DNA of 61,982 nucleotides from Candidatus Aenigmatarchaeota archaeon (GTDB lineage Archaea > Aenigmatarchaeota > Aenigmatarchaeia > GW2011-AR5): the NCBI GenBank assembly GCA_016193585.1, contig JACPRW010000002.1, positions 1 to 61,982 on the forward strand. Direction: 5' to 3'. The notes under the pieces are model-generated. The model saw only the letters and a list, made by a program, of their open reading frames with translations. It was not told the DNA's origin and ran no database searches. Below, piece by piece: positions 7,685-61,024 of this stretch (the stretch's first letter is position 1; each line of letters opens with the position of its first letter). Made by a program: the position numbers and the translations under genes.

Positions 7685-8128
7685 ATGGCACAATGGCGAT
7701 TGCATTCGAAGCGGAAAGCGACCGGCGGGCTACTCAGGCGCCGCAGCAAGAAGAAGCGCTACCAGCGCGGCAGCGATTTTTTGCCTGCGCACATCGGCCC
7801 GGCGAAGGTGCGGGAACTGCGCACGCACGGAAACAACACGATGCTCAGGGTTCTTTCCGCCCAGACGGCAAACGTTTCGGTGAACGGGAAAGCCAGAAAG
7901 GCAGCGATTACGACCGTCGCCGAAAACCCCGCAGACTCGCAGTTTGTGCGCCGGAACATCATCACCAAAGGGGCAATCCTGCTCACGGAGCTCGGCAGGG
8001 CACGGGTCACCGGAAGGCCGGGACGGGACGGCGCTGTGAACGCGGTGATAATCGACCAGGCGCCGAAGGCGCCAGCCGGCCGCGAGGAAAAGGCGGCGAA
8101 GAAGAGTTATAGTGAACCAAGTAAATAA
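7685..8128 (+). CDS. rps8e: Ribosomal protein S8e
   Basis: N-terminal MAQWRLHSKRKATGG...RKKRKYQRG matches the S8e signature. The stop codon lies inside a hairpin-repeat module. Confidence 0.85.
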   Translation: MAQWRLHSKRKATGGLLRRRSKKKRYQRGSDFLPAHIGPAKVRELRTHGNNTMLRVLSAQTANVSVNGKARKAAITTVAENPADSQFVRRNIITKGAILLTELGRARVTGRPGRDGAVNAVIIDQAPKAPAGREEKAAKKSYSEPSK

Positions 8129-8208: not shown

Positions 8209-8304
8209 TATAGTGAAGCAAATAAATAATACCGATATTATACATTTGCTTCACATATAGCAAACAAGGAAGTAATATCGTGTTTATTTCCTTGTATTGC
8301 TATA
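8209..8304. repeat. Family A repeat, uninterrupted reference copy (module 1 plus module 2)
   Basis: tatagtgaagcaaataaataataccgatattatacatttgcttcacatatagcaaacaaggaagtaatatcgtgtttatttccttgtattgctata. Confidence 0.85.
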
Positions 8305-13471: not shown

Positions 13472-13896
13472 TTTTCATAGATTCCAATATGTGGTGCTAC
13501 TTCTTTGATGAATCCGCAAGAGAAAACAAGAAAGTCGTTGAATTCGTGAAAAGAATTTTAGAAAAAGAGGAAGTAGCCATAAATACTGCTGTAATTACAG
13601 AAATAGCGCATTTCCTTATCAAAAATCTTGGCCCGGTGAACGGGAAGAAAAAAATTGAAACGTTCCTCGAATTCCCGCTTGTGGTAAGAGACGTAACATA
13701 CGCCGATACCAAAGATTCTATTGAGCTACTGTGCCAGTATGCCCATGAAGGAATAGGTGGCAGGGATGCCACGCTGCTCAGCAGCATGAAAAAACTTGGC
13801 ATACAGAGAATTGCCACGCATGACGCGGCATTCAAAAAAGTAGAATGGGCAGATGTGATCGATCCGATACAAAATAATAATAGTAAAGAACATTGA
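13469..13896 (+). CDS. vapC: PIN-domain toxin (VapC-like)
   Basis: MIFIDSN start, acidic residues spaced as in PIN, IATHD motif. The stop codon lies inside a hairpin repeat. Confidence 0.7.
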
Positions 13897-13973
13897 TTTT
13901 GGAACATTTTACAATGTTCTTTCCATATAGCAGATTGTGGTAAAAGTTCCATTATTATTACAATCTGCTATAA
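13878..13973. repeat. Hairpin-module repeat lying exactly between convergent vapC and aspartate aminotransferase stop codons
   Basis: Copy of 463-560. Overlaps both stop codons. Confidence 0.85.
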
Positions 13974-15122
13974 CTAGCGCAGTCCTCTGAGCACCCGCTC
14001 CACCCGGTCCATGCCCGCTTCAATCGTCTTCATGCCCGTGGCATACGAGAGCCGCACATGCCTGTCCGAGCCGAAGTCCTTGCCGGGCACGACGGCGACG
14101 CGGGCTTTGTCGAGGAGCAAAGCGGCGAAAGCGGATGAACTCATCTTGTCCGGCACTTCAGGGAACACGTAGAATGCGCCTTCCGGAAGCCGGCAGGAAA
14201 GCCCCATCTTCTGCAGGCGCGTGGTCATGTACTTCCTCCGCCTGTCGAATTCGGCTATCATCGTGCGTACCGGCGACTGGTCTCCTGCCAGCGCTTCGAC
14301 GGCAGCCGCCTGCGCTATTGACGACGGGTTGGACGTCGTCTGGCTCTGGATATCGGCGACAGCCTTGACAATAGCTGCCGGTCCTGCGCAGTAGCCAATG
14401 CGCCAGCCGGTCATCGCGTACGTCTTCGAGACGCCGTTAACCACAATCGTGTTGTCATACGCGAACGATGCCGGGCCGCTCTGCTTCCTGCCGTCGTAGA
14501 CAAAATGCTCGTAAATCTCGTCCGAAATCAGCCAGACGCCGCGCTTTTCCGCAAGCGACGCCAGTTCCATGATCGTTTCCCTGCGCTCCACTGCACCGGT
14601 CGGGTTGCTCGGCGAGTTGACGACGATGGCCTTTGTCCTTTTCGTCAGCTTCGTCTTCACCTGCTTCGGCACTGCATGGAACTGCTTGTCCGTGGCGGCG
14701 AATACGGGCTTCCCTCCGGCCAGCCTGATCTGCTCGGGATAGCTTGTCCAGTACGGCGACGGCACGACGACCTCGTCGCCCCGGTTGAGCAGCGCCAGGA
14801 AAATATTGTAGAGGGAGTGCTTCGCGCCGCACGAAACCGCAACCTGCGACGCGCCGTAGGAGAGGCCGTTCTCCTTCTCCAGCTTCCTGCAGACAGCTTC
14901 TTTGAGTTCGGCGGTGCCTGCCGGCGCCGTGTACTTCGTGAAGCCCTGCTGTATCGCGCGTATGGCCGCCTGCTTGATGTGCTGCGGCGTGTCGAAATCG
15001 GGCTCGCCGATGCTGAAGTCCGCGACGTCGATGCCGGCCCTTCTGAGCTCTTTTGCCTTGTCGCTGATGGCCAGCGTCGCAGAAGGAGCGATTGCAGTTG
15101 CTCTCTGCGACAGCATAATCAC
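13974..15122 (-). CDS. Aspartate/aromatic aminotransferase (PLP-dependent, class I)
   Basis: NPSNPTG, SKTYAMTGWRIGY (Lys in the SKT motif). 382 aa. Confidence 0.85.
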   Translation of the reverse strand: MIMLSQRATAIAPSATLAISDKAKELRRAGIDVADFSIGEPDFDTPQHIKQAAIRAIQQGFTKYTAPAGTAELKEAVCRKLEKENGLSYGASQVAVSCGAKHSLYNIFLALLNRGDEVVVPSPYWTSYPEQIRLAGGKPVFAATDKQFHAVPKQVKTKLTKRTKAIVVNSPSNPTGAVERRETIMELASLAEKRGVWLISDEIYEHFVYDGRKQSGPASFAYDNTIVVNGVSKTYAMTGWRIGYCAGPAAIVKAVADIQSQTTSNPSSIAQAAAVEALAGDQSPVRTMIAEFDRRRKYMTTRLQKMGLSCRLPEGAFYVFPEVPDKMSSSAFAALLLDKARVAVVPGKDFGSDRHVRLSYATGMKTIEAGMDRVERVLRGLR

Positions 15123-22610: not shown

Positions 22611-22853
22611 TATAGTGGACCAACAAAAGAATACCGACATAGTACTTTTGTTGTCCGCTACACGCGGAAAACAAGGTTTTCCGGTGCACCAAAAAGCTTT
22701 GCTTTTTGCGTGTAAGTGAACCAAGATATAGATAATTGCGCAGCTTATGTCGTATTAACGCGCAATTTTCTATAGGTGAATTGCAAATAATATCAGGACA
22801 TAACCAGTGCAATTCACCATATAATACCTGATTATTTACTTGGTTCACTATAA
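22611..22853. repeat. Composite hairpin-module repeat (about 240 bp), rearranged relative to 29045-29288
   Basis: Shares the aattgcgc, gtgaattgca and gtgaaccaag modules and a ggaaaacaaggttttcc hairpin. Track ORF 22555-22848 falls inside it and was rejected. Confidence 0.85.
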
Positions 22854-24098
22854 CTAGATATTGTACCGCAGTATCGCTCCCAGCCCGCCGAGGTGCTCGA
22901 ACTGCACACCCTCGCGCGTGTCTGACGTCACGACGACAACTGACGTGCCGTAGTCTGCCGCGCGCTCTTCGAGGTATTCGACGAGGTCCTTTTCTCCGAT
23001 GAGCATGCCTTCGACCTTCTCCGGCTTCCGCGGGTCCCAGAACACCTCTTTTTTCTCGTCGTTGACGAGGTATTCCCGCACCTTGAGCGGATTGTTCTCG
23101 TTCACGATGATTTGCTCGACCGCGCCCATCTCCAGCGCCTTCAGCACGTCGTCGAGCTTGTACAACGCCAGCCCGTGCGGCTTCTGCATCTCGGTGAGCA
23201 CACGCTGGATGACCTTCTTCTCCTTGAAGACGCTCGCTTCCTTTATAAGATTCTCGCCGCGCTGTATCGTTTCCTCAAGCCCCTGGTCGCCGGTGTAGCT
23301 CGTGTCGACGGTGCCGAGAATCTTTTTCTTCACGTCAGCGTGCAGGAAGTCCTCCTTGTACAGCATGTCCTTCACCGGGCCGGAGCCGGAAAGGAAGATG
23401 CCGATGACGTTCTTGTGCTCTTCAAAGAATTTGTTCGATGCTTCGGCGACATGCTTGAGCCAGTCGTTGAGCAGGCCCTCGCGGACGCGGCTGAAACGGG
23501 CGGAACTCTGCCCGCCCGCGCGCGTCTTTCCCGGCACGATGGATTCGAAATGCTGGAACGGTTCTATCTTCTTGCCGACCAGCAGCGCGATGTCCGCCTC
23601 GCTCCGGTCGAGACAGATAATTCCGTACACCTCCTTTTCCTCGACCATCTCCATGAGCGGCTCAAGGACGAATTTCTGGTCACACCAGTACATCTTGACC
23701 TTGACCGGTTCCGGCGGCTCGATTGCAATCAACCGGATGTCCGCCTCGCCTTCGCGCTGCGACACGTTGCCGCAGAACACCGCGAGCCCGTTGTCGGGCG
23801 TCTTCCTGTAGAGCTGCAGGTGGCGCATAATCTTCTCGAGCGCGCCGACGACGTTCTTCTTCACCTGCTTCGACTTGATGTTCTCTGCGGTGCTCTGTTC
23901 CGACCGCAGCTGGTTCATCATCTCGGCAAGGGGATAACTGACCGGCACGTACACGGTCACGAGCTCGGTGTGCCGTCCCTTGACCGCCCCAAGTTCCTTC
24001 GCGAGCTTCTTGAGGCGGAACTTTGATTTCAGCACTTCGGCGTGCTCTTCTTCAGGCATTTTCATCACGACCTTTTCCAAAGCACACGGGCGCAGCAA
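22854..24098 (-). CDS. prf1: Peptide chain release factor aRF1
   Basis: GGQ motif (TRAGGQSSARFSR) and NIKS-like region (ENIKSKQ). Alternative start at MKMPEEE (24065). Confidence 0.9.
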   Translation of the reverse strand: MLRPCALEKVVMKMPEEEHAEVLKSKFRLKKLAKELGAVKGRHTELVTVYVPVSYPLAEMMNQLRSEQSTAENIKSKQVKKNVVGALEKIMRHLQLYRKTPDNGLAVFCGNVSQREGEADIRLIAIEPPEPVKVKMYWCDQKFVLEPLMEMVEEKEVYGIICLDRSEADIALLVGKKIEPFQHFESIVPGKTRAGGQSSARFSRVREGLLNDWLKHVAEASNKFFEEHKNVIGIFLSGSGPVKDMLYKEDFLHADVKKKILGTVDTSYTGDQGLEETIQRGENLIKEASVFKEKKVIQRVLTEMQKPHGLALYKLDDVLKALEMGAVEQIIVNENNPLKVREYLVNDEKKEVFWDPRKPEKVEGMLIGEKDLVEYLEERAADYGTSVVVVTSDTREGVQFEHLGGLGAILRYNI

Positions 24099-25287: not shown

Positions 25288-25478
25288 TCATAGTAAAGAA
25301 CATTGATTTTGGAACATTTTACAATGTTCTTTCCCTATAGCAGATTGTGGTTATAGTGAAGCAAATAAATAATACCGATATTATACATTTGCTTCACATA
25401 TAGCAAACAAGGAAGTAATATCGTGTTTATTTCCTTGTATTGCTATAAAAGTTCCATTATTATTACAATCTGCTATCA
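25288..25478. repeat. Nested hairpin repeat. The family A unit (modules 1 plus 2) is inserted into the loop of the gcagattg hairpin.
   Basis: Compare with the uninterrupted copies at 463-560 and 13878-13973. The insert equals 8209-8304. The last module overlaps the valS stop codon. Confidence 0.85.
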
Positions 25479-28790: not shown

Positions 28791-29044
28791 AATAATTATT
28801 GCTTTCTTTTGTTATAAGCATATCTCAAATCCGGGCTTTGGGACAAAACTCCATATCTTGTAGAAAAGATTTCAGCCAACACAACATATCGGTTCAAATC
28901 TTCACTTCGGTATCGAAAAGAAGAAATACGAAGTAGAGAATTATCTGATTAGCTATCGACTACTTTTGTCTCAAAGCTTATTCACTGCACTCCGAGTAAT
29001 ACGTCGTACAATGCATCGAATGTTGCGGTATCCGTGAAAGCAAA

Positions 29045-29288
29045 TATAGATAATTGCGCAGCTTATGTCGTATTAACGCGCAATTTTCTATAGGTGAATT
29101 GCAAATAATATCAGGACATATAGTGAACCAAGTAAATAATCAGGTATTATATCTTGGTTCACTTACACGCAAAAAGCAAAGCTTTTTGGTGCACCGGAAA
29201 ACTTTGTTTTCCGCGTGTAGCGGACAACAAAAGTATTATGTCGGTATTCTTTTGTTGGTCCACTATAACCAGTGCAATTCACCATATA
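29045..29288. repeat. Composite hairpin-module repeat (about 240 bp), partner of 22611-22853
   Basis: Track ORF 29054-29329 lies inside it and shares its peptide with ORF 22555-22848, so it is a repeat artefact. Confidence 0.85.
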
Positions 29289-29368
29289 TGAACGCGAAAT
29301 GGGTCGAAGGGTTGTGGACAGTCCTGTAGTTTACTAGATTTATAAACCTTGATGGCGGTAATAATTAC

Positions 29369-30508: not shown

Positions 30509-30527
30509 CGCGTTCACGAATGCTTTT

Positions 30528-30706
30528 TATAGTGAAGCAAATAAATAATACCGATATTATACATTTGCTTCACATATAGCAAACAAGGAAGTAATACAAG
30601 GTGGATTCCATGAATCCACCTGTACAGGAGAATCTTCGATTCTCCTCGTATCATGTTTATTTCCTTGTATTGCTATAATACGACATAAGCTGCGCAATTA
30701 TCTATA
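30528..30706. repeat. Family A repeat with inner insert, plus aattgcgc module
   Basis: Near-identical to 46-225. Confidence 0.85.
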
Positions 30707-30725
30707 TCTGGAATGTCATGCCTCA

Positions 30726-31454
30726 TTACTTTTTCGCTGCGTTCCACATGACGTTGAAATATTTCCGGTAGCCTTCAGCTATGGATTTGTTTTCGATGAC
30801 GATGGCCAGTGGCTCGTCCTCAGAAAAGAGAATGATCGCAACCTTGCTGCCGTAAATCCGCAGCGCCGCATGAGAGCTGAATTCGTCAGGCAGGAACCTG
30901 CATTCCAGCATCGGATTGGACGTATATCTCCTGTTGTGGGCGCTTTCGTTGTAGATAAGTTTCGGCTTGATATTTTTCTTCATCCTTCTTCTGACATACC
31001 CCGGCATGTAAAACCTGAGCACCTTTTCTATCTGCTCCCCCGGGCCGTAACCGGCATAATTTTCTCCGGCAGCAAGGATATCTTCGAATACGGTTTTGAT
31101 GCCCTCCCTTCCTTTGAAAACTTTTACGTCGCCGTGTTCCCTCCGATGGGGCTTCAATTTGTGTATCTCCTTCTCAAGCCTCCTTCTGCTTTCCTCAATG
31201 GACTTTTTCTGCTCTTCGACAATCTGAAGCAGCCGTTCAGGCTCGGTGGCGTGAAACAGTTTTCTGCTGTTCATGGTCACGAAGCTCACGAGGCCTTTCT
31301 GCATCAGCCGTTCCAGCGCGTCGTACACGTTCCTGCGGTGGATGCCCGTTGCCTCGGTGATGCGCCCTGCGCGTGAAGATCCAGACCGCAATAAATTCAG
31401 GTATATTTTCGCCTCATTTTTCGTCAGGCCGATTTCCCCCATGAGGTCCTGCAT
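30726..31454 (-). CDS. TrmB-family transcriptional regulator
   Basis: N-terminal wHTH LTKNEAKIYLNLLRSGSSRAGRITEATGIHRRNVYDALERLMQKGLV and a C-terminal TrmB effector domain. Confidence 0.75.
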   Translation of the reverse strand: MQDLMGEIGLTKNEAKIYLNLLRSGSSRAGRITEATGIHRRNVYDALERLMQKGLVSFVTMNSRKLFHATEPERLLQIVEEQKKSIEESRRRLEKEIHKLKPHRREHGDVKVFKGREGIKTVFEDILAAGENYAGYGPGEQIEKVLRFYMPGYVRRRMKKNIKPKLIYNESAHNRRYTSNPMLECRFLPDEFSSHAALRIYGSKVAIILFSEDEPLAIVIENKSIAEGYRKYFNVMWNAAKK

Positions 31455-31533
31455 ACAGCACATGATGCACGCAGGCTTTAATTTGTATGCGTGTGGTTGC
31501 CTTGGTAACCACACTGGTTAATATGTAACCGCG

Positions 31534-31839
31534 ATGAATAAAATGAAAAAGGAGGTGGAGAGAAGCATGACATACGTCGGAAGCAGGGAATCTGGTAGAT
31601 GGATATCACTGGCTGCTCGAAATGCTGCAAGCATCCAGGCGCTCTTACGGGAGCAAGTAGTCTTAGGCATTTACATAGATGCGTTGCGACGGGGAGATGC
31701 TGCGAGGGTTGCACAAGCCAGTGCACGGTTGCCGTATCCGGTGAGTGGCGTTGACGATGCCGAAGTGCGATTGGCGTACGCCCGCGATATCAGCGACTAT
31801 ACATTTCTGGCTATGCAACACGAACTGGGGAGTGGCTGA
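31534..31839 (+). CDS. Hypothetical protein
   Basis: 101-aa ORF upstream of the HK-like gene. No motif. Confidence 0.3.
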   Translation: MNKMKKEVERSMTYVGSRESGRWISLAARNAASIQALLREQVVLGIYIDALRRGDAARVAQASARLPYPVSGVDDAEVRLAYARDISDYTFLAMQHELGSG

Positions 31840-31893
31840 CATTTTTCATGAACGTGAAGTCATTGATGTTCCTGACGAAGGAGAGGTTTTCTG

Positions 31894-32856
31894 ATGGGAA
31901 GGCTACAGGAAATAATCACCCGTGAGTTTGGCGAGCGAATAATCCGAATGCCTGATCCATTGGGAGAGCTAACGCCTCCTGATGATGCACTCTATGACGC
32001 GTTAGGTTGCCATGTCGCTGACCCCTCCGTGCACGAGGCATTTGACGGGATTTTCGATGCAGTGCGGGCGATGGAAGCTGCTGCGCGCGCTGATTCGCCT
32101 GATGAGTACGACCGGCTGGCAGTGGGATTGCACGGTCATGACCTGAGGAATATGCATGCAGTTCTGGCATCAAGTTTCCGCCTGAGCAGATCACGGCCCG
32201 GCCTGCTGCGTGACAGAGAGTTTCTCGATACATTTTCAGCATATGAGCAGCTTTTCCGCCTCTTCGGTGCCACGATGGCGTATCTTTCATCAGCGGGTGA
32301 TGCACGCTATACGTTACCTGTCCCTTTTTCACGCGTGGGGTGGCTGCTGCAGGTACCGGCACGAGGCATAAAACTGACAGCGCTTGAGCATCCTCCTGTG
32401 GGGCATCTACAAAGTCCTGAGTATGTGGTGCTGCACCAGTTCGCTTCTAATGCCCCTGTTGGTTTTGGTGCTGTCATCGATGATGGCGGCGCGTACACAA
32501 CGCTCTCTGTCAGCGATAGAGGACCAGGTATTCGTGATGCCTGCGGGAGCCCGCTCCCGCCAGAACGATTCAGCGAGCTGTTTGGCGGTTTCACGACAAA
32601 GGAAAGAGGAAGAGGCCATGGCGGAGGATTGCAGATAGCCGACGGGTTGAGCCGCTTGCGAGGAGGCTATATCGATGTCAGGACAGGAACAGAGGCGCAT
32701 GAAATTCAGTATACGACGCGTGATGGCCGTTATTCCGTATCTCCTCCTAACGGTTTCCATGGGACCCGCTTCACGCTCCATGTCCCCCACTCCAACAGTT
32801 TCCATGGAAGAGGCGGTGACGCTATGGCCGGTTTCGGTGCAGCGCATTATGCGTGA
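31894..32856 (+). CDS. Histidine-kinase-like ATPase domain protein (soluble, no receiver or TM domain)
   Basis: H-box-like GLHGHDLRNMHAV. HATPase_c blocks VSDRGPGI and GRGHGGGLQIA. Codon usage less GC3-biased than neighbours. Confidence 0.55.
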   Translation: MGRLQEIITREFGERIIRMPDPLGELTPPDDALYDALGCHVADPSVHEAFDGIFDAVRAMEAAARADSPDEYDRLAVGLHGHDLRNMHAVLASSFRLSRSRPGLLRDREFLDTFSAYEQLFRLFGATMAYLSSAGDARYTLPVPFSRVGWLLQVPARGIKLTALEHPPVGHLQSPEYVVLHQFASNAPVGFGAVIDDGGAYTTLSVSDRGPGIRDACGSPLPPERFSELFGGFTTKERGRGHGGGLQIADGLSRLRGGYIDVRTGTEAHEIQYTTRDGRYSVSPPNGFHGTRFTLHVPHSNSFHGRGGDAMAGFGAAHYA

Positions 32857-32909
32857 ATGCCTCCGCTTTTGATAAAAGGTTTTAATAGACTGCTATCATT
32901 ATAGATAGT

Positions 32910-33443
32910 ATGATGCTTTTCCATCGGCTTTTCAGCGTCATGGACATGCTGCATCCAGCACGGGTTGCCTACGCCCACTGCGACATCCCGTGCGGCATCT
33001 ACGACCCTCACCTTGCCCAGCAGGCCGCGCATACGGTCATTCGCATGGTTATGCTTATCGAAGAAGCAACGGCAAAATTCAAGGCACTAGCAAACCCGAT
33101 AGCAGAGGACAGGCGCGAGTTTGTCACCAAGCTTGCCCGCTACACTGCAACGAAAGAGCAGCACGCCGAGCTGTGTAAACACGAAGTCCGCATCCTGTGG
33201 GGCGACTACTTCAAGCCTGAGCACATCCAGAAATACCCTGAACTGCACGAGCTGGTGTGGAAGGTTATGAAGCTGGGGTCCATCGCGCGGCAGTCGGTCG
33301 ATATGCAAACCGCTGAGGAGCTGCTCGAGGCCGCGAACCGCGTTGCCGAGATATTCTGGGAAACCAAGGGCATGGGCCACGCGCGCTACCCGGCGCCGAA
33401 CCCTACCGGCCGGCAAACCGTCTATCCGACGGGGAAGAAGTAA
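32910..33443 (+). CDS. sodN: Nickel-containing superoxide dismutase precursor
   Basis: Ni-hook HCDIPCGIYDP after a 22-aa propeptide. LWGDYFKPEH, YPELHELV and IFWETK blocks as in Streptomyces SodN. Confidence 0.85.
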   Translation: MMLFHRLFSVMDMLHPARVAYAHCDIPCGIYDPHLAQQAAHTVIRMVMLIEEATAKFKALANPIAEDRREFVTKLARYTATKEQHAELCKHEVRILWGDYFKPEHIQKYPELHELVWKVMKLGSIARQSVDMQTAEELLEAANRVAEIFWETKGMGHARYPAPNPTGRQTVYPTGKK

Positions 33444-33525
33444 TGCTCTGTTCTTAAAAGTTGTCGTCCAATAGACCTTTCATGGGGGATTCTGAAAACA
33501 AACAGATTTTGGGTGACTTTGCCAT

Positions 33526-33816
33526 TATATGGTGAATTGCACTGGTTATGTCCTGATATTATTTGCAATTCACCTATAGAAAATTGCGCGTTATAGTGAA
33601 GCAAATAAATAATACCGATATTATACATTTGCTTCACATATAGCAAACAAGGAAGTAATACAAGGTGATCGTGTTTATTTCCTTGTATTGCTATAATACG
33701 ACATAAGCTGCGCAATTATAGCTGACCAACTTAATATTCAGGTATTACACAAGTTGGTCACATATAGTGAACCAAGTTATAATATCCGGATTCTTTACTT
33801 GGTTAACTATATCTAT
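33526..33816. repeat. Composite hairpin-module repeat (gtgaattgca, aattgcgcg, family A with 8-nt footprint caaggtga, tgaccaactt and gtgaaccaag modules)
   Basis: Module 2 here carries only caaggtga where 97-213 carries the 56-nt insert. Confidence 0.85.
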
Positions 33817-36941: not shown

Positions 36942-37503
36942 ATGGCATACGATGTCAGGCTACATCCTGCCGCAGATGATTTTTTAAAATGCTCCCGAAA
37001 CATGTTTCTGCGAGAATCAAGGAAAAATTAATAGTATGTTCTGTTGATTAGTGAACATTTCATCTTGAATGCCTTGAAAACTGCTACCTTCAGGCAGCAA
37101 ATGCAACAAGGCATTCGGGATCTTCAAAGAGCAGAGCTCTTTGAGATCTCAACTGCGGAAAGCTTCCACTTTCCGCAGTTGCAGATGCCATGCTCCACGG
37201 AAACCACCGACTGCAGTCGGTGGTATAGAGGAGCATATCATGCAGAACATACCCTATAGCAGGTTCAGGTGAAAAGTTTGGTTATTACGTGAACCTACTA
37301 TAATAAGAGCCATAAAGGAAAATCCATTCCATTATCTTGAGCTTTTGAAAGGAGAAAACGTTTACAAGCTGCGCATCGGCGGCTACAGGGAACTGATAGA
37401 CATCGATTTCAGGGAAAAAGTTCTTTACGTCCGTGTTCTCGGCCACAGAAAAAGAATTTGCAATGGTAGTTGGATATGCCCCTCCTCATGCGCTTCAAGG
37501 TAA
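36942..37503 (+). pseudogene. relE: RelE/ParE-family toxin gene split by a 260-bp MITE insertion. N-fragment 36942-37031, C-fragment 37303-37503.
   Basis: N-part MAYDVRLHPAADDFLK... C-part IKENPFHYLELLKGENVYKLRIGGYRELIDIDFREKVLYVRVLGHRK. The C-part is in a different frame. Confidence 0.6.
37040..37302. mobile_element. Composite MITE (family B) inserted in relE. Core atgccatgctccacggaaaccaccgactgcagtcggtggtatagaggagcatatcatgc...ctatagcaggttc-hairpin-tactata, plus three extra hairpins.
   Basis: Second copy of the about 115-bp core at 54161-54277. Non-coding and all-hairpin. Confidence 0.75.
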
Positions 37504-37757
37504 GAGACCGTAGCATGGAGCCAGCGCTCCGTGAGGGCGACTACGTGCTCGTGAGCAGCGTGCCGTTCATGGTCAGACGGCCTGCTGCAGGCGACATTGT
37601 TGTCGCACGGCACAAGGGAATGTTCGTCATCAAGCGGATACGGGAGACAGAAGGAGACGTGTACACGCTTCTCGGAGACAACCCGCATGGCAGCGGCTTC
37701 CGCGTGCCGAAAAAAGCCATTGTCGGCAAGGTTGTCCTGCACGTACGGAAAAAATAA
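37470..37757 (+). CDS. sodX: S26-family signal-peptidase-like protease, candidate NiSOD maturation peptidase SodX
   Basis: Catalytic Ser in RDRSMEPALREGDYVLV and Lys in FVIKRIRE. 95 aa. About 4 kb from sodN. Confidence 0.6.
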   Translation: MDMPLLMRFKVRDRSMEPALREGDYVLVSSVPFMVRRPAAGDIVVARHKGMFVIKRIRETEGDVYTLLGDNPHGSGFRVPKKAIVGKVVLHVRKK

Positions 37758-37944
37758 AAAGGGCGGCGCACAGATAGCTTTGGTGATTTGATGGGCGACG
37801 ACGACCGTCAGGAGTTCTTCGAGGGCAAGAAGCGGAAGAAGTACCGACGCATCTACAAGAAGGGTCACCAGCGCGTGTACAAATGACGCTCTGAGCACTT
37901 CCAGCATTCGGTGCACAGATTGCTTAAATACTTAGCGTCATGGT

Positions 37945-38038
37945 TATAGTGAACCCAGAAAAGAATCTGGATATGATTTCTGGTTCACATATAGCTCACA
38001 AGGAAGTAATATCCTGTTTATTTCCTTGTAGAGCTATA
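37945..38038. repeat. Hairpin-module repeat (gtgaacccag plus acaaggaag modules)
   Basis: Modules shared with 1838-1935. Confidence 0.8.
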
Positions 38039-38059
38039 ATGCTCAGAGGGACCACCTGC

Positions 38060-39169: not shown

Positions 39170-42100
39170 ATGCTTCAATCTTCTCTGCAACCATCAGCAA
39201 GTGCCAAGCGCGTTCGCCGTACATGGTGCACCCTCTTCATACCCATTGCTGTCCTGCTTCTTGTAGCGAGTTTAAAGGCTACGCCTGCAGAAGCTGGATG
39301 CGTAACAGACGGTGGCTGGTCAGCAACGTGTAATTCTGGTAACATATACGGTGGAGGGGCCCCAAATACTAACCCATGCGTCAGAAGCGCAGGTGGATGC
39401 GGTATCGCATCAGTTGAATGCGAAAATGTTTGCTTGTTTTATAATAACAACTGCGGATTAGCTTCTGGTTGCTATTGCTCTGGGGGGAGTGTTTTGCAAC
39501 CATTCTGCGGGGGGCCGAACAAATGCTATAACCCAAAAGAACGCTATGGTAAAAGTGTTTGGTGCGGCAATGGAAAATATTGCGATCAGCAATGTGAGTG
39601 CGACAATTTATGCGGCGGCGCGCCGCCGCCGGGTAGCACGTGTTCAGCCGGCTGGAAATGCAAAAGCCCGACAACGAAAGGCTATCAGAGCAGCAACTGC
39701 GCATGGTCGCAGGAACAATACTGCAACTATGGCTGCTCCAATGGAAACTGCAATTCGGCTCCAGTGACGGCAAGCAATGACGCCGCTTTCGTAGAGCAAA
39801 CCGTGCCGTCAACGATGTGCGTCGGGCAGGTAGCGGCAGTAACCGTGAAAATGAGGAACACGGGAGGGTCGATATGGAATGCAGCTGACAATTACCGGCT
39901 TGGTGCGCAGAAGCCATCCCAAGACAGCGATCGGTGGGGCAATACAAGAGCTTATCTTGTGCCGTACATCAACTACTGGAACGGCGGTGTGGACACTGCG
40001 ACGTTCAACTCGCCGGGGTCAACGTGGAACGTGGTGCCCAATGCCGCGGGCACCTATGAGTTCCAGTGGCAGATGGTCAGGGATGGCGTTGGGTGGTTTG
40101 GCCAGAAGACGAATTCGGTGTCGGTGACCGTCCTTGCTGTGCCATCGTCGGCGCCGTCGCTGACGCAGCCTGCCTATAATCAAAAATTTCCCCCTGGCAC
40201 GTCGTCGGTGACGCTGAAGTGGAGCAGCGTCGACGGCGCGACCAGCTATGACGTGCGGGTCACCGATGATAACGATGCGGCGGATACGAGCAACATCGTC
40301 GGCGCAAATAGTAACTGTGCGCCAAGCTTAGACGTATGTTACGATGGCTGGACAAACAGAGAAATGACGATTACGGTGCAATCAGGCAAGCGGTACAAAT
40401 GGTGGGTGCACGCCAAAAACCAGTGCGGTTCTGGCGGCGGGTCGGCAAACTACGAATTTCTTGTCGATACCAACAGCCCGCCGGCGGCATCCATTGCTTC
40501 AGGCGCATCAGCCGGCTGCAGCGGCACTGCTTACACGTACGCCGCATCGGGCTCTGATGTGAACAGCAACCTCTACGATATAGCGCTCTATGTGTCTCCG
40601 ACATCCAGCAGGAGCGCGACATTGATGGGCGAATGCTCATTTGCGGACACGTCATCGTACAATTGCCAGAAGTCCTGGACACCGTCAGGAGCCGGCGCCT
40701 ATTACGTGTTCGTGAACGCGTGGGACCGGGCAGGCGGCCAGTGCTCTGGTAATCCATGGTGCGATTTCGATGGCGGCTCGCTCAGCTGCGACGCAGGCAG
40801 CAACTGCGTCTATTGTACGGGCTGGTCGCGCTGCGGGTCAAGCGACCGCACGACGGTCACCATTTCCAGCAATGAGTGCTCGGCAGCAGGCGTCATCGAA
40901 TGTTCCAGCAACCAGGCGCGCACCTGCGGCAGCAATTACGACGGCGATCCGTGCCTCGAATGGAGCTCGTACACGAGCTGCGGCAGCACGCAGTCGTGTG
41001 CATCAGGTTACAGCGGCTCCTGCGCCAATTCATGCAGCACAGCATCAGGTTGCGTCAGCTGTACGCTCACCTACACGGGAAGCTCGCCGACCTGCTGCGG
41101 CAATGACGGCACGAGCGTCGGCAGTAGCGGAACATGCTGTTCAAATCTTGTCAAGTGCGACGGCGTCTGCCGCAGCCGCAGTTCGTGCAGCTGCGACGAC
41201 GGCAATGCGTGCACCACCGGCGATACCATTCAGGCTGATGGCGTGTGCCGGGGGACAGCCTACGCGGCATCAGGAACGCCGTGCGGCACCACTGCATGCG
41301 GCTGGAACCAGGTCGGCAGCGGATGCACGCGGTACTGCAACGGCGCAGGAACCTGCAACAGCTGCCCGCCATCGTGCACGGCATCGTTTGGAACGTCCAT
41401 CGAATCGGTCTGCGTCAATAACGTGTGCAGCGGCGACGTGAGCGTGCCGACAACCGGCACCATTACGGCAGAGATTACCGTCAAAAACACTGGTGCCTTT
41501 TCCCAGGCGTGGTGGTTTGTCGGCGCCGAAGCCATGAGGGTCGGCAATTATAATGACCCCTATAACTCACGGTATGGCACGTCGCTCATCACGAAGTACT
41601 ACAACGGCAAAGACGATTACGGTGACTGCACGGTGAGCGACGCATCCGACATACCGTCAGGCGGAACACGGAAAATAACCTGCACCTTCCCTGCGGCGTC
41701 ATTTGGCGCAACGAGCGGCATCGAGCGCGTCATGTTCTGGGTGCATGAGCGGGACCTTGGCCAGGACAGGAACGGCGGCTGCGCGGTATGGGACGGGAGC
41801 AGTGATACGTACTACAAAACGTGCGGGAATGCAGTCAATTGTTACAGTGCCACTCCTGTCAGTTTATCGTGCGACCAACGCTATTATAGTCTCAGGAACG
41901 AGTTGCTGTCGCAGTACGGCCAGTGCTGGCAGTATGGTCAGAATGTGTGCAATGAACTCCAGGAATGGATAGAGTCTCTTGACAAATGCTATAGTCAGGC
42001 TGACTGCGATTTATTCAGAAATCATGCCCGGTATTCGTGCGACCCCAACCGCATCCCGATACCGAGTTACGTATGCGACAAGATGCAGCTGTACGACCAG

Positions 42101-44131
42101 AGATGTTACCGGAGCCGGTCGAATGGGTGCTGGGGCGGCTCGTGGTGGGACGACGCGCTCGCAACTGCAGCGCCTGCGGCGGTCAGGGTTTCGCTGATCG
42201 ACTGCACCGGTTCAGGCGGAGCGACTGGCCCCGGCGGTTACTGCTGCAGCGGCCTGACGAAATGCAGCGGCGACGTCTGCAGAAGCATCTGTACCGGCGA
42301 TTCCTGCAATGACGGCAGTCTGTGCACGTTCAATGACCGCATACAGGCTGACGGCTCGTGCAGGGGAACCATACACTCCTGCCCGGACGTGAAATGCGGG
42401 AGATTCGTGTGCGACGGCAACGGCGGGTGCACCGGCTCATACGTGAGCGTATGGTGCACCGACGACAATGCGTGCACCGCCGGCGATTTCTGCAGTGAAG
42501 GCTCCTGCCGGGCGACGGCCTACACCTGCCCTCCGCAGTCGTGCCCTGCTGATTCCTGCGCAAGCTCGACGTGGTACTCGACGTGGTACGATTACCCTGC
42601 GTCGTGCACGCGAAGCTGCCTCGGCAACGGCGCGTGCAGCGTCTGCGATTGCACGGCACAAACAACCGCGTGCACTGCCGGCAGCGGGTGCTGCGTTGCG
42701 CGGTGCTCAGCGGGCAGCGGGTGCTCGACAGCAGCAGGCTCGTGCGCTGATCTGTGCAGCGCGAATACGCTCACCATCGGACAAAGCTGCAGCGGGTGCG
42801 GGGCGAATGGCGCTGCAGGGAATTGTGGCGGCGGGACAAGTTATACGTGCGACGCGACATCGCATACGCTCTGTCAGCAATACTCATGCGGCGGCAGCAC
42901 GTACTCCTGCACGAATGCCGGCGGAAGCTGGTCGTGGAGAACAGCAACAGGCTGCAATGACAACAATGCATGCACGTACAACGACGCATGTGCAAGCGGC
43001 TCGTGCCGGGGAACGTCCTATGCGTGCAGCGACGTCTGCACCATGAACACGCTCACCATCGGCAGGGGATGCAACGGCGACGGCACGTGCGGCAGCGGCA
43101 CGTCCTATGCATGCGATGCCACAACGTACACGAGCGGCCAGCAGCTGACGTGTGGCGGTCTGCAGAAGTGCTGCACCTATGCCTCCGGCAGCTGGCAGTG
43201 GTCGTCATCGTGCGACAGCAATGCGCCATCCAGTGGCTGGACAGGCAGCAGCTTCGGGGCATATGATAATGACGGTACAGCATCAGCAACCGTATCATGC
43301 GCCGACAGCGGCAGCGGGCCGAAGGACGCGTGGGTCGCCAAAAAAGTCAATAATGCATGGCAGTACTACTGCGCTGACGGAACATGGCAGACGGACTCCG
43401 ACTGTAATAGCCACAATGGCATCGGCTTTTTATCATCCACGTATGCGTGCACCTCAACCGGCGCTGACGGACACCGTCTTCAATGTGCTGTCCGGTGCAG
43501 GGACAATGCGCTTAACGTTGATGCAAGCTGGGATTACACGACAGACTCATTAGTGGATACGTCTGCGCCAACATCTGGCTGGACAAGCAGCACCTTTGGG
43601 ACGTATGACACAGATGGCAGCGCTTCAGCTGTCACGTCGTGCAGTGATTCAGGAAGCGGAATCAGGGACGTATACGTAGCTTGGAGAGTCAATGGACTCT
43701 TTGCCAATTATGGTTATCAGGCATATCCCTATACCTGCACCTCAACCGGTTCTAATGGCCAGTATATTCAATGCGCTGTCCGGTGCAGGGACAATGCCGG
43801 CAATTTAGATGATAGCTGGGATTACACGGCTGGGACAATAGTGGACACTGCTCCTCCGTCCACCAGTTCTTCATCTTCCGTCACCGCCAACCAGTACAAC
43901 TGGTACACCTCGAACGTCGCGGTCACGCTGGCGTGCAGCGACACCGGCGGCAGCGGCTGCGGGGCGACGAAGTACTGCACCGATACGGCGGGCACGTGCA
44001 CGCCGACGACGACGTACAGCGCCGCGGTCACCATCAGCAGTCGAGAACCCTGCTCATCGACAAGACCGCGCCATCCGGCGTTTCGGTATCGAATACCAAC
44101 GGCTATTGGTCAGCAACAACCATACCCGTAA
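39170..44131 (+). CDS. Giant secreted Cys-rich adhesin-like protein, N-terminal 1,653 codons. Signal peptide, Cys-rich modules, CARDB/DUF11-like and FN3-like domains, four CxDxNxCT..D..C..G.CRG repeats, Ig-like repeats.
   Basis: Signal peptide MLQSSLQPSASAKRVRRTWCTLFIPIAVLLLVASLKATPAEA. About 150 Cys. The track frame ends in junk after AVTISS because of a frameshift at about 44040. Confidence 0.8.
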   Translation: MLQSSLQPSASAKRVRRTWCTLFIPIAVLLLVASLKATPAEAGCVTDGGWSATCNSGNIYGGGAPNTNPCVRSAGGCGIASVECENVCLFYNNNCGLASGCYCSGGSVLQPFCGGPNKCYNPKERYGKSVWCGNGKYCDQQCECDNLCGGAPPPGSTCSAGWKCKSPTTKGYQSSNCAWSQEQYCNYGCSNGNCNSAPVTASNDAAFVEQTVPSTMCVGQVAAVTVKMRNTGGSIWNAADNYRLGAQKPSQDSDRWGNTRAYLVPYINYWNGGVDTATFNSPGSTWNVVPNAAGTYEFQWQMVRDGVGWFGQKTNSVSVTVLAVPSSAPSLTQPAYNQKFPPGTSSVTLKWSSVDGATSYDVRVTDDNDAADTSNIVGANSNCAPSLDVCYDGWTNREMTITVQSGKRYKWWVHAKNQCGSGGGSANYEFLVDTNSPPAASIASGASAGCSGTAYTYAASGSDVNSNLYDIALYVSPTSSRSATLMGECSFADTSSYNCQKSWTPSGAGAYYVFVNAWDRAGGQCSGNPWCDFDGGSLSCDAGSNCVYCTGWSRCGSSDRTTVTISSNECSAAGVIECSSNQARTCGSNYDGDPCLEWSSYTSCGSTQSCASGYSGSCANSCSTASGCVSCTLTYTGSSPTCCGNDGTSVGSSGTCCSNLVKCDGVCRSRSSCSCDDGNACTTGDTIQADGVCRGTAYAASGTPCGTTACGWNQVGSGCTRYCNGAGTCNSCPPSCTASFGTSIESVCVNNVCSGDVSVPTTGTITAEITVKNTGAFSQAWWFVGAEAMRVGNYNDPYNSRYGTSLITKYYNGKDDYGDCTVSDASDIPSGGTRKITCTFPAASFGATSGIERVMFWVHERDLGQDRNGGCAVWDGSSDTYYKTCGNAVNCYSATPVSLSCDQRYYSLRNELLSQYGQCWQYGQNVCNELQEWIESLDKCYSQADCDLFRNHARYSCDPNRIPIPSYVCDKMQLYDQRCYRSRSNGCWGGSWWDDALATAAPAAVRVSLIDCTGSGGATGPGGYCCSGLTKCSGDVCRSICTGDSCNDGSLCTFNDRIQADGSCRGTIHSCPDVKCGRFVCDGNGGCTGSYVSVWCTDDNACTAGDFCSEGSCRATAYTCPPQSCPADSCASSTWYSTWYDYPASCTRSCLGNGACSVCDCTAQTTACTAGSGCCVARCSAGSGCSTAAGSCADLCSANTLTIGQSCSGCGANGAAGNCGGGTSYTCDATSHTLCQQYSCGGSTYSCTNAGGSWSWRTATGCNDNNACTYNDACASGSCRGTSYACSDVCTMNTLTIGRGCNGDGTCGSGTSYACDATTYTSGQQLTCGGLQKCCTYASGSWQWSSSCDSNAPSSGWTGSSFGAYDNDGTASATVSCADSGSGPKDAWVAKKVNNAWQYYCADGTWQTDSDCNSHNGIGFLSSTYACTSTGADGHRLQCAVRCRDNALNVDASWDYTTDSLVDTSAPTSGWTSSTFGTYDTDGSASAVTSCSDSGSGIRDVYVAWRVNGLFANYGYQAYPYTCTSTGSNGQYIQCAVRCRDNAGNLDDSWDYTAGTIVDTAPPSTSSSSSVTANQYNWYTSNVAVTLACSDTGGSGCGATKYCTDTAGTCTPTTTYSAAVTISSREPCSSTRPRHPAFRYRIPTAIGQQQPYP

Positions 44132-47187: not shown

Positions 47188-47235
47188 GATGAGCACCTTC
47201 CGCTGTTACCGTACCGTAACCATCATTACAATCAT

Positions 47236-47439: not shown

Positions 47440-47509
47440 ACATCAATATCAGCATCAGTATCAATAGCAGTGATTAATAGTATTTAAATCTTTACATTCA
47501 TGTAAAGAT

Positions 47510-54277: not shown

Positions 54278-54333
54278 AGTGATTATTCGTGTGCACTTTT
54301 AAATAATGCAGCACACTAGACATATGATTGATT

Positions 54334-57161: not shown

Positions 57162-57175
57162 ATATCTGCATCATT

Positions 57176-61016: not shown

Positions 61017-61024
61017 TTATTACA

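Follow-up and report, generated by a model that had tools for sequence, protein, structure and literature searches.

Introduction

Transposases of the IS630/Tc1-mariner DDE families generate 2-bp TA duplications. A class of AT-rich MITEs shorter than 200 bp, with 5'-TA-3' termini, target site duplications (TSDs) and stem-loop transcripts, has been described (PMC2229807). RUP of Streptococcus pneumoniae is linked to IS630-Spn1 and inserts at TA-containing targets; a staggered IS630-type cut-and-paste mechanism was proposed for it, and Correia elements have the same TA termini and TSD (PMC2229807). REP/BIME sequences and REPINs are short extragenic palindromes with a terminal tag that are mobilised by RAYTs, which are Y1 enzymes related to IS200/IS605 (PMC2817692, PMC3733652). 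Among archaea, the Sulfolobus MITEs SM1-SM4 are small and non-autonomous (Redder et al. 2001, cited in PMC2229807), and some DPANN genomes carry more than 100 MITEs per Mb (PMC11602168).

This study concerns short hairpin repeats in 61,982 nt of DNA from Candidatus Aenigmatarchaeota archaeon (contig JACPRW010000002.1), referred to here as the window. We describe the anatomy of the repeats, the TA rule that their insertions follow, their nesting and their distribution across genomes. The best reading is that a superfamily of mobile elements colonises the intergenic DNA of this archaeon; its members are very small, non-coding palindromes rich in AT. Literature searches did not find these Aenigmatarchaeota repeats described. 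All features are given on the forward (+) strand unless stated otherwise.

Results

Module anatomy

The large module, about 48 nt long, opens with TATAG and closes with CTATA; in between, the two arms of a 10-12-bp stem enclose a loop that is AT-rich and quasi-palindromic. The other module class comprises GC-richer hairpins of 24-28 nt with CA...TG ends. Module GC content is 22-41%. Each unit that moved comprises two hairpins or a short series of them and measures from 52 to about 145 nt. A hairpin closes the unit on either side, and the ends are symmetrical: TA/TAG...CTA/TA, or TA/CA...TG/TA in the small ones. A single genome carries several unrelated arm sequences side by side (the A, B, C and D families).

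An unbiased sample of 26 second-module hairpins had 95.9% of its cells paired, with compensatory changes at 9/17 pairs. Covariation was 0.389, compared with 0.123 for shuffled sequences and at most 0.105 when the partners were slid. The 3' arm of these hairpins has one unpaired column, a bulged base that is usually A. Watson-Crick pairs make up 93% of the pairs in 78 unique modules. Across genomes the stems covary strongly and the termini, the loop motif and the bulged A are conserved, and each dimer shows the loop motif once per strand. The intuition of an earlier, sequence-only reading of this DNA, that the hairpins are recognised in folded form, is plausible given covarying stems and a conserved loop, bulge and termini.

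Strict perfect-stem scans missed most modules because the bulge is conserved. An energy-based scan (TAG...CTA, RNAfold) was dropped in favour of a covariance model, since it returned 32 matches in the reversed control and 21 in the real sequence; the control scored higher because GC-rich coding DNA folds by chance. The curated Rfam covariance models, applied at the gathering score, identified two tRNAs only in the window. Intron-containing tRNAs are present, and the window also encodes eRF1 and S8e, all of which speak for DNA from an archaeon. Long tRNA introns were tested as candidate hairpin modules and rejected.

The nested insertion at 25.3 kb

A B dimer lies 3' of a Band7 gene. Its module 1, hairpin B1 (ATAGTAAAGAACATTG...CAATGTTCTTTCCCTATAG, 25290-25340), aligns with copies at 466-516 and 13880-13930, and a DNA fold predicts the hairpin. 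The gcagattg hairpin, B2, is intact at 512-559 and 13926-13972 and is split by an A unit at 25336-25476 in the alignment. The 5' half of B2 (TATAGCAGATTGTGGT, 25336-25351), host of the nested insertion, was delimited by alignment and filled/empty comparison. It is followed by the left TA copy at the insertion point (25352-25353), the inserted A dimer proper (TAG...CTA, 92 nt, 25354-25445), which consists of hairpins A1 and A2, and the right TA copy (25446-25447), both TA copies being placed by filled/empty comparison. The 3' half of B2 (25448-25476; sequence and alignment) extends into the stop codon (25476-25478, minus strand) of the gene for valyl-tRNA synthetase (ValRS). Including its own TATAG and CTATA, A2 spans about 25399-25447, and the covariance model matched 25399-25447 with E=2e-18. 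A DNA fold of the nested region (196 nt) has an energy of -42.8 kcal/mol (z=-10.5).

Together with the flanking TA copies, the family A pair (25352-25447) is identical at 96/96 positions to 8209-8304, where the A dimer has no repeat around it and separates the S8e gene from the gene that follows. The claim that this unit is identical to 8209-8304 and sits inside a hairpin that is intact elsewhere was borne out by the alignment. The same reading gave the empty sites as tggTAaaag, which is correct for the copy at 13926; the copy at 512 reads cggCTAaaag and is 1 nt longer, and therefore the duplication call shifts from 1 nt to 2 nt (TA). Against the 48-nt uninterrupted B2 (GCGGCTAAAAG, 512-559; alignment, filled/empty comparison) the duplication at 25352 is TA, and against the 47-nt uninterrupted B2 (13926-13972; alignment) it is T, which leaves a clean TA with one of the two empty references only.

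Other nested insertions and the TA rule

Six filled/empty comparisons were made, all within the window. A single TA lies exactly at the insertion point in 6/6 empty sites, and TA flanks both sides in 5/6 filled sites; in the sixth, at 25352, it does so only against the 512-559 reference. The proposal of insertion without TSD is not supported at these sites.

In two cases exactly 2 nt (TA) are duplicated. A reverse-complement C1 hairpin (rcC1, 29-224; filled/empty comparison) carries an A dimer (46-196) in its loop, with exactly TA duplicated relative to the uninterrupted C1 at 22727-22774 (alignment, filled/empty comparison). A second uninterrupted C1 copy lies at 29045-29092. The A dimer at 46-196 is itself interrupted in its A2 loop by a pair of small hairpins (element 115-166, TA copies 113-114 and 167-168; filled/empty comparison), again with exactly TA duplicated, here relative to the empty A2 at 8257-8304. 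TSDs of 3-4 nt (TTA, TAA, TTAA) were rejected because the A dimer in the C1 loop duplicates exactly TA.

The other three comparisons set an upper bound. A hairpin dimer (TAGCTGACCAACTT... plus GTGAACCAAG..., 33719-33809) occupies the 3' stem arm of an rcC1, with TA copies at 33717-33718 and 33810-33811 and a duplication of at most TAT relative to the empty GCGCAATTATCTATAACAG at about 208-229. A 145-nt composite (29121-29265) made of an a' hairpin, two small hairpins and a GTGGACC hairpin was inserted at the loop TA of C2, with TA copies at 29119-29120 and 29266-29267 and a duplication of at most ATA relative to the empty C2 at 22775-22823. The loop of an a' hairpin (22716-22852) carries a C1-C2 dimer, with a duplication of at most ATATA relative to the empty a' at 29121-29162. 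Nesting is thus reciprocal: a C dimer lies in a' at 22716-22852, and a composite containing a' lies in C2 at 29121-29265. For a further insertion, at 47289-47337, an AT duplication fits rather than TA.

More TA-bounded nested copies were found in other genomes (loci L046, L052, L009, L073 and L059; also L024). Loops host 11/12 of the nested insertions recognisable in the window and the other genomes; the exception is 33719-33809, whose target is a stem arm. Most copies lie in ordinary intergenic DNA. The flanks of 41 unique dimers from relatives show T at position -1 in 63% of cases and A at position +1 in 73%. Copies sit in unrelated contexts, because the remaining flank positions are unconserved. 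A 185-nt composite at 45-229 is 98% identical to 30527-30711, and was counted, along with the 96/96 identity of the A dimers, as a sign of recency.

That the modules are or were mobile is supported by identical copies in unrelated contexts, at least six clean filled/empty pairs, reciprocal nesting and further cases in other genomes. A 2-nt TA at both junctions is formally equal to an element that has TA at one end and was inserted beside a TA without duplication, and the two cannot be told apart.

The small-hairpin pair in A2 and its remnant

The acaaggaag hairpin, A2, is intact in the alignment at 8257-8304 and 25400-25447 and filled at three sites (94-195, 30576-30677 and 47338-47439). The insert lies between GTAATA and TCRTG, consists of two small hairpins and is 54 nt long (52 nt plus the second TA); the sites and the two-palindrome make-up had been recognised before, with a length of 56 nt. 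Copies 2 and 3 of the insert are at 30597-30650 and 47359-47412 (alignment).

At a fourth A2 loop CAAGGTGA alone remains (33661-33668; alignment). The remnant had been noticed, with its start at 33655, and read as an excision footprint in support of IS200/IS605-style transposition. It arose when 46 nt were lost from within the small-hairpin pair, a simple deletion without microhomology, and it derives from a filled copy, since the outer composite context matches the copy at 29-224. The loss came after the nesting, and the remnant is not a diagnostic excision scar. A footprint would in any case argue against IS200/IS605, because excision of those elements is precise.

The proposal of single-strand transposition

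The sequence-only reading had favoured single-strand transposition of the IS200/IS605 kind. In this explanation, which extends to REP/RAYT systems, a tyrosine HUH (Y1) enzyme would recognise the folded hairpins, cut beside TATAG and insert the unit at TA in single-stranded loops, and the second TA would belong to the element. Several features fit. Hairpin structure is conserved over arm sequence, while the loop, the bulged 3' base and the terminal pentanucleotide are conserved, a pattern resembling that of REP with its GTAG tag or of IS608 hairpins. Mobile units have a complete hairpin at each end and are too small for easy double-strand synapsis, and the nested insertions are concentrated in loops. 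At the loop-closing pair G·T exceeds A·C by 20 to 4, an asymmetry considered as a possible sign of a single functional strand, although the two are similar in number outside this last pair and the alignment was fitted to the model.

Other observations are difficult to reconcile with it. TA is present on both sides of the filled sites (with the sixth case reference-dependent) and the TATAG/CTATA ends have two-fold symmetry. The dimer at 33719-33809 entered a stem arm and most copies are in ordinary intergenic DNA. The loop bias may be due to ascertainment, because stem insertions destroy the host hairpin. The orientation of the dimers does not reverse at the GC-skew minimum near 28 kb. Finally, no Y1_Tnp (Y1/HUH) domain was detected in about 60 scanned ORFs of the window and related loci. 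We consider a single-strand mechanism unlikely.

Abundance and gene context

The window contains about 17 arrays with roughly 50-60 modules, and hairpin repeat makes up about 5% of its chromosomal part (roughly the first 56 kb). The repeats greatly exceed chance expectation. With up to 3 mismatches allowed, the 15-mer TATAGTGAAGCAAAT occurs 15 times compared with 1.5 expected, and a covariance model of one module type identified 17 distinct sites in the window at E<0.01 (best E=5e-19) and none in 359 kb of related, ValRS-anchored control loci. The covariance model also found no modules in a low-GC island at 56-62 kb.

Many arrays lie 0-20 nt from stop codons (ValRS, eRF1, an aminotransferase, TrmB and CMP kinase), and these sit between convergent genes. 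Arrays also occur in 5' regions, in an intercistronic spacer and in divergent promoters; the divergent promoter region at 37917-38040 is a dimer almost throughout. The repeats supply stop codons and C-termini, fill promoter regions and lie between convergent genes. The genes they flank are core or housekeeping genes in both orientations. An ORF between two arrays (37425-37916) was considered as a small transposase and rejected, as it is domain-free and looks like a spurious antisense frame.

Distribution across genomes

The hairpin families were found in 77 loci, 75 of which come from 21 archaeal MAG assemblies labelled as Aenigmatarchaeota (13), Woesearchaeota (1) or only 'archaeon' (7). The hairpin-bearing loci contain 187 covariance-model matches on both strands. 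In loci L013, L074 and L063 the orthologous divergent spacer has no modules. Hairpins are up to 47/47 (100%) identical between genomes whose proteins are about 63-72% identical, and strong constraint or horizontal transfer is therefore needed. Viral contigs gave no match to the hairpin pattern, and an exact 22-mer of the 25.3-25.5 kb locus gave no match in the metagenome collection.

Constraint is central to another explanation, in which the hairpins are functional host elements (3'-end or terminator, mRNA stabiliser, promoter module) that are selected and are spread or homogenised by recombination or gene conversion, with nesting as a by-product. The 47/47 identities speak for it, as do the arrays beside stop codons of convergent genes, the loop motif present once per strand in each dimer and the promoter region at 37917-38040. 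For ValRS, and likewise for the aminotransferase, hairpins follow the gene in two different genomes. However, the hairpins at such 'orthologous' positions differ in family and orientation, and most ValRS relatives lack them (no modules were found downstream of ValRS in ValRS-anchored relatives at 65% identity or less). The positions are too varied, ranging over 5' regions, the intercistronic spacer and divergent promoters, for a single positional role, and the 56-62 kb island has no modules. Identical copies with unrelated flanks and TA on both sides require an insertion mechanism anyway. We felt that host function as the primary explanation was quite unlikely.

The nested arrangements might also be assembly artefacts, that is, chimeric joins of short repeats in a metagenome assembly. 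An independent short-read assembly of the same organism (L001, sample SRR12113428) breaks exactly at repeat boundaries, with both contig ends inside hairpin repeats, which indicates that the arrays are hard to assemble. Yet over 2,874 nt (30680-33553), as far as the edges of the repeats, L001 and the window show 100% identity. Comparable nesting occurs in independent assemblies of other genomes, the junctions are consistent (TA), the host hairpin halves are exactly complementary and the repeats are shorter than typical reads. An artefact is hardly credible.

Search for a mobilising enzyme

About 60 ORFs of the window and related loci were compared with Pfam or NCBIfam, and no transposase of any family was identified. 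No RAYT-like ORF was found in the scanned DNA. A parent insertion sequence was sought by means of inverted matching termini 0.4-4 kb apart, which returned only separate hairpins flanking ordinary genes. Among 1,242 clustered ORFs near hairpins in 78 loci there was no recurrent transposase-like neighbour; the recurrent neighbours are EF-1α, a DEAD helicase, an intein-containing protein, pilins and similar proteins. The only recombinase in the scanned ORFs is a XerA-like tyrosine integrase (54581-56008).

This integrase is one point in favour of another explanation, in which a tyrosine or serine recombinase acts site-specifically on a TA/TATA core, much as happens with integron attC or Xer/dif modules. 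The modules would be small circles, possibly single-stranded, able to recombine with any site that contains TA, and such recombination leaves a shared dinucleotide core at both junctions. In their logic the modules recall attC sites: each is an imperfect palindrome whose terminal motifs and extrahelical base are conserved while its arms vary and covary. The integrase, however, adjoins a tRNA and the low-GC island and looks like the integrase of an integrated element. Moreover, 2 nt is a very short core for tyrosine recombinases, the modules are not organised as a cassette array, the genes beside them are core housekeeping genes, and the module termini are presumably unlike attC R'/R'' motifs. 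Site-specific recombination is very improbable.

Discussion

Because the units insert repeatedly into one another with duplication of TA, they are best regarded as small mobile elements of the MITE type and not as IS200/IS605-style elements. We give a probability of roughly 0.55 to the reading that they are non-autonomous, TA-duplicating palindromic mini-elements moved by an enzyme encoded elsewhere. Units integrate at a TA dinucleotide, with T-TA-A preferred, leaving TA on each side. The site at 25352-25447 records one such event, in which a 92-nt A dimer entered the loop TA of B2. Module loops and termini are TA-rich, so new copies often land in or beside old ones, and nested and tandem arrays result.

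A 2-bp TA duplication together with symmetrical ends would be the product expected of a 2-bp staggered cut-and-paste reaction of the IS630/Tc1-mariner DDE type. The sequence-only reading had reserved DDE transposition for TSDs of 4 bp or longer, a rule that overlooks the TA-duplicating families. We infer that an enzyme whose gene lies elsewhere moves the units in trans. Two points count against an ordinary DDE enzyme: at 52-96 bp the units leave very little length for a double-stranded paired-end DDE complex, and the coexisting A, B, C and D arm families are not explained by a sequence-specific TIR-binding transposase. The covarying stems, the conserved loop, bulged A and termini, and the coexisting stem families suggest that what the enzyme recognises is the TATAG end together with a folded hairpin or cruciform, and not a fixed TIR sequence.

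A more speculative version, which we regard as possible but doubtful, is that the hairpins are substrates of an unrecognised structure-specific DPANN transposition system that cuts and pastes units of at least 52 nt at TA. An extruded hairpin or cruciform would be recognised via its TATAG foot, bulged A and AT-rich apical motif, with the stem sequence irrelevant. One machinery could then maintain many stem families across the phylum, and intergenic regions would be built block-wise, including gene ends, stops and possibly promoters or terminators. If this were true, the system would differ both from classical TIR-reading DDE systems and from IS200/IS605, and a structure-reading enzyme would represent TA-targeting transposition machinery of a new type, with potential use as a tool.

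The mini-element reading has consequences of its own. DPANN genomes are small and streamlined, yet about one-twentieth of the chromosomal part of the window is hairpin repeat. Even if the units are ordinary IS630-type MITEs, the arrays explain why short-read assemblies fragment at exactly these positions. The arrays are also a lineage marker for this group of Aenigmatarchaeota, and their nesting naturally preserves the order of insertions, from which element dynamics can be studied.

Comparison with known systems

The integron attC system, with its cassette array, intI/attI and recombination at GTT, differs from these repeats, in which the insertion point is TA and core genes are flanked. IS200/IS605 elements have asymmetric ends, leave the target tetra- or pentanucleotide unduplicated and on the left only, excise seamlessly and require the Y1 transposase TnpA. 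The present units resemble IS608 and ISDra2 in having a hairpin at both ends, no long TSDs and insertion beside a short fixed motif. They differ in their symmetric, inverted ends, in the TA on both sides, where IS200/IS605 has a left-only motif and no duplication, and in the lack of TnpA in the scanned ORFs.

Several likenesses to REP/BIME elements and REPINs can be seen, namely a conserved terminal tag, alternating orientation in composite arrays, very high copy number, conservation of structure over sequence and a mobilising enzyme acting in trans (PMC2817692, PMC3733652). REPs are GC-rich, 20-40 nt long and tagged with GTAG/CGTC at one end, whereas the modules here are about 48 nt long and AT-rich, with TATAG on both sides, TA flanking the insertions and several stem families with one loop motif per genome.

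Among MITEs, those of Sulfolobus are 130-350 bp deletion derivatives of identifiable IS elements, whereas the hairpins described here are much shorter, and no parent IS could be identified for them in the searched DNA. A TA target with TA duplication, the hallmark of IS630/Tc1-mariner MITEs, was found in six window cases and five nested copies elsewhere. Inverted termini are present as well, but their sequence varies among the coexisting families, and no transposase element of 0.4-4 kb with matching ends was found in the window and related loci.

Correia termini also begin with TATAG, and the sequence homology to RUP/Correia ends at this terminal pentamer. The repeats described here also differ from RUP/Correia in their host, a DPANN archaeon, in the lack of an IS630-like partner in the scanned DNA, in their freely combining modular hairpins of 24-50 nt and in their pervasive nesting. 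Their arms vary and covary while the loop and TATAG are conserved, the reverse of a pattern in which the TIR is conserved and the core varies. In other respects they are like RUP and the Correia/NEMIS elements of Neisseria: non-coding, shorter than 200 bp and AT-rich, with inverted 5'-TA-3' termini, TSDs and long stem-loops, intergenic near gene ends and able to fuse with the ends of ORFs (PMC2229807). The TA-ended hairpin elements are probably of a known kind, a variant of the described AT-rich MITE class.

Abundance and distribution of the hairpin modules

A 15-mer from the A unit (the dimer of hairpins A1 and A2) occurred 15 times in the window with ≤3 mismatches, against 1.5 expected. Folded as DNA, the nested region gave z=-10.5. 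A covariance model for one module type identified 17 distinct sites in the window (E<0.01) and had 0 matches across the control set, 359 kb of loci taken from related organisms. The repeats are far above chance expectation. All AT-rich intergenic stretches of the window were then read, which gave ~17 arrays comprising roughly 2.8 kb and ~50–60 modules. Copies at distant sites are identical or 98% identical. L001, a locus assembled independently from the same organism, is a perfect match to 30680-33553, and both its ends stop within repeats.

The genes of the window are archaeal housekeeping genes, including those for eRF1, ribosomal protein S8e, valyl- (ValRS) and methionyl-tRNA synthetases, pyruvate kinase and archaeal-type PEP carboxylase. 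A search of the genome collection with a degenerate pattern of the first A hairpin matched 77 loci, and 21 archaeal MAG assemblies account for 75/77. The label Candidatus Aenigmatarchaeota is carried by 13 of these assemblies, among them GW2011_AR5 relatives; 1 is labelled Woesearchaeota, and 7 are labelled only 'archaeon'. Proteins of the hairpin-bearing genomes are only ~55–72% identical to those of the window, and no closer relative was found in the genome collection. The A1 hairpin is nevertheless identical at 47/47 positions between the window and locus L058. Such near-identity across distant genomes is evidence of constraint or transfer. Two loci from bacterial MAGs, one from Armatimonadota and one from an uncultured bacterium (L003 and L036), carry an identical hairpin with the arms found here, TATAGTGAAGCAAG...CTTGCTTCAC. 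Its loop is GC-rich and unrelated, and the likeliest explanation is a chance match or a different element.

Module anatomy

The large module (~48 nt) consists of TATAG, a 10–12 bp stem, an AT-rich quasi-palindromic loop that often reads AATAAT-C/A-C-N-G-R-TAT, the return stem, and CTATA. Most modules form fixed pairs with the junction CTATAG or CACATATAG, and in families A, B, C and D the loop motif is oppositely oriented in the two members. A second class comprises 24–28-nt hairpins, again usually in pairs, whose stems are richer in GC and whose ends are CA...TG.

Second hairpins were sampled without bias, each chosen solely by the neighbouring first hairpin, giving a set of 26 different ones. 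In this set 95.9% of stem cells were paired, compensatory changes were present in 9/17 pairs, and the covariation score was 0.389, compared with 0.123 for shuffles and ≤0.105 for slid partners. The 3' arm has a conserved unpaired position, usually A, three pairs above CTATA. Watson-Crick pairs made up 93% among 78 unique model hits. The pairing and covariation results indicate that termini, loop and bulge are conserved while the stem drifts with compensation. Classical MITEs show the reverse, with conservation residing in their inverted repeats, whereas here the arms are what drifts.

A further repeat family, with copies at 37190-37303 and 54170-54278 that are 84% identical, joins two TATAG-bounded hairpins to a GC-rich perfect palindrome (CCACCGACTGCAGTCGGTGG). 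Downstream of the first copy, 37304-37440 on the + strand encodes a putative RelE/ParE-like peptide, judged by eye only.

Filled and empty insertion sites

All sequences quoted in the sequence-only reading were found in the window. It had described an A unit nested within another hairpin, and the unit at 25352-25447 does match 8209-8304 over 96 identical nt. It splits hairpin B2 of the B dimer (TATAGCAGATTG...CAATCTGCTATA), for which alignment A1 shows uninterrupted copies at 13926-13972 and 512-559. These two empty sites had been given a common reading, but 512-559 is GCGGCTAAAAG, 1 base longer than the 13926 copy. Hairpin A2 (...ACAAGGAAG...) has uninterrupted copies at 8257-8304 and 25400-25447 and filled ones at 94-195, 30576-30677 and 47338-47439; its insert, reported as 56 nt, measures 54 nt.

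The longest common left and right flanks were computed for each nested copy having an intact paralogous 'empty' hairpin. Exactly TA is duplicated around the A dimer in the loop of C1, first hairpin of the C dimer, at 29-224 and also from 33575 onward (empty site 22727-22774; GCGCGT[TA]TAG...CTA[TA]ATACGAC), and around the small-hairpin pair in the A2 loop (GTAA[TA]CAAGG...CCTCG[TA]TCGTG). The duplication is at most TAT where a hairpin dimer (33719-33809) interrupts the 3' stem arm of C1 (AAT[TA]TAG...CTA[TA]TCTATA), at most ATA for the 145-nt four-hairpin composite at 29121-29265 in the C2 loop, and at most ATATA for the C1-C2 dimer in the loop of the hairpin a' that spans 22716-22852 (a' is also present at 29121-29162). 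For the A dimer within B2, it is T against the 47-nt empty copy and TA against the 48-nt form. In each of the empty sites, one TA lies precisely where the element went in. Only one solution accommodates them all: the target is TA, the inserted element ends up with a TA on each side, and the elements have the form TAG...CTA or CA...TG. The sole exception to the TA rule is at 47289-47337, where two small GC-rich hairpins separate both hairpins of an A-type dimer; the junctions fit an AT repeat, CACAT[AT]...[AT]AGC, and no empty form of this insertion was found.

Nesting is also reciprocal, between composites at 22611-22852 and 29034-29290. In the first, the C1-C2 dimer lies within the a' loop; in the second, the C2 loop holds a composite of a' with two small hairpins and a GTGGACC hairpin. 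This arrangement is hard to explain unless both had moved.

The TA rule also holds for nested copies in other Aenigmatarchaeota genomes, where small-hairpin pairs are mostly at one particular TA, the apex of the host loop (L052 6050-6152, L009 5015-5117, L073 3118-3220, L024 7846-7943, L059 1996-2106 and L046 425-527). Large-hairpin type and TA are as in the window; the stems differ, with compensatory changes. The apical TA is either a strongly preferred target or part of an ancient composite that propagated and diversified. Across 41 distinct dimers of other genomes, the outer flanks have nothing in common beyond a T before (63%) and an A after (73%) the element, which points to many independent contexts with a T-TA-A preference.

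The remnant in A2 (CAAGGTGA), previously placed at 33655, is present and spans 33661-33668 (alignment A2). The copy that holds it, 33592-33696, has the same outer composite as copy 46-196 and therefore descends from a filled copy. It is without 46 internal nt of the small-hairpin pair, retains TA+CAAGGTG+A, and has no microhomology at the deletion breakpoints. The change is a deletion inside a palindromic region, and in form it is unlike a Tc1-type scar. Excision by IS200/IS605 elements is precise and is not expected to leave a scar. The supposed excision footprint was treated as uninformative on mechanism.

Genomic placement

Eight relatives lacked modules downstream of ValRS, and 359 kb of such loci contained none. 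L013, L074 and L063 also had no module in the divergent spacer orthologous to the one that holds a 206-nt array in the window, and none was found in the low-GC island at 56–62 kb of the window. These absences, together with the identical or nearly identical copies at distant sites, favour mobility. Arrays occupy convergent gene ends, 5' regions, the eRF1-GNAT intercistronic spacer and divergent promoters, and often adjoin or replace stop codons. A module supplies the last 7 codons and stop of the S8e ORF, the ValRS, eRF1 and aminotransferase stops are 0–1 nt from a module end, and a PIN-domain ORF terminates within hairpin B1. Gene ends given or adjoined by modules are at 8108-8128, 13877-13896, 25476-25478, 22854-22856 and 13974-13976; two gene-end/module junctions share the 10-mer CTATAACTAG. 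This placement is consistent with TA-targeted insertion in a compact genome whose spacers are very short. Hairpins of families other than the window's follow ValRS and the aminotransferase in one other genome each, and a secondary host function is possible. The divergent promoter regions 37917-38040 and 47197-47509 are largely hairpin arrays, and the metallophosphoesterase ATG at 38041 directly follows a terminal CTATA. Modules may be a source of TATA-box-like promoter elements.

Rfam identified tRNA genes at 4676-4804 (64-nt intron) and 54532-54651 (51-nt intron), both missed by ARAGORN in bacterial mode. Their long introns were considered as hairpin modules and rejected. The region 54334-56008 holds 3.3 tandem copies of a 50-nt unit, before tRNA 54532-54651 and each starting with that tRNA's 5' end (CCCGCGATAG...). 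An ORF for a XerA-like tyrosine integrase (54581-56008) overlaps the 3' half of this tRNA and is followed by a 33–35% GC block without hairpin modules (56000-61982). Taken together, these features suggest an integrated element in which att-like fragments of the tRNA are repeated. At 39170-46759 (60% GC) are very large ORFs (1,653 and 774 aa) with long internal DNA repeats, one of 143 nt being 100% identical between 43899-44041 and 44456-44598. The 774-aa ORF (44435-46759) had no Pfam match; the region is probably a repetitive surface protein gene.

Mechanism and relation to known elements

Among ~60 ORFs scanned from the window and from related loci, no transposase domain was found, and the only recombinase was the XerA-like integrase beside the tRNA and low-GC block. 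Neither a longer element with matching termini nor a hairpin in viral contigs was found. The mobilising enzyme must therefore act in trans.

Insertion at TA, a TA on either side and symmetric ends are typical of bacterial TA-terminated MITEs (PMC2229807). These are also the hallmarks of IS630/Tc1-mariner-type cut-and-paste transposition, and they are matched here. We give a little better than even odds (about 0.55) to the elements being TA-duplicating non-autonomous palindromic mini-elements, for which a 2-bp staggered cut would be the likelier chemistry. A plain DDE transposase that reads TIRs sits poorly with the tiny unit size, the several unrelated arm families side by side, and selection on pairing, not arm sequence. 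For the same reasons a structure-specific enzyme (HUH or other) is still in play. The sequence-only reading had proposed IS200/IS605-style insertion of mobile modules without target site duplication. Mobility stands, but TA on both sides and symmetric ends count against the rest, and we consider an IS200/IS605/RAYT-like system unlikely.

Elements of this general kind are already known, as AT-rich TA-terminated stem-loop MITEs and as REP-like extragenic palindromes in mosaic arrays. No prior description of this Aenigmatarchaeota hairpin family was found in the searchable literature; the nearest published statement is of very high MITE densities in some DPANN genomes (PMC11602168). New features are the host lineage; a modular organisation, in which 24–50-nt hairpin units recombine to form larger mobile ones; nesting that is both pervasive and reciprocal; an inverted pattern of conservation, with structure, loop and terminus kept and the arms free; and persistence at high identity across the phylum.
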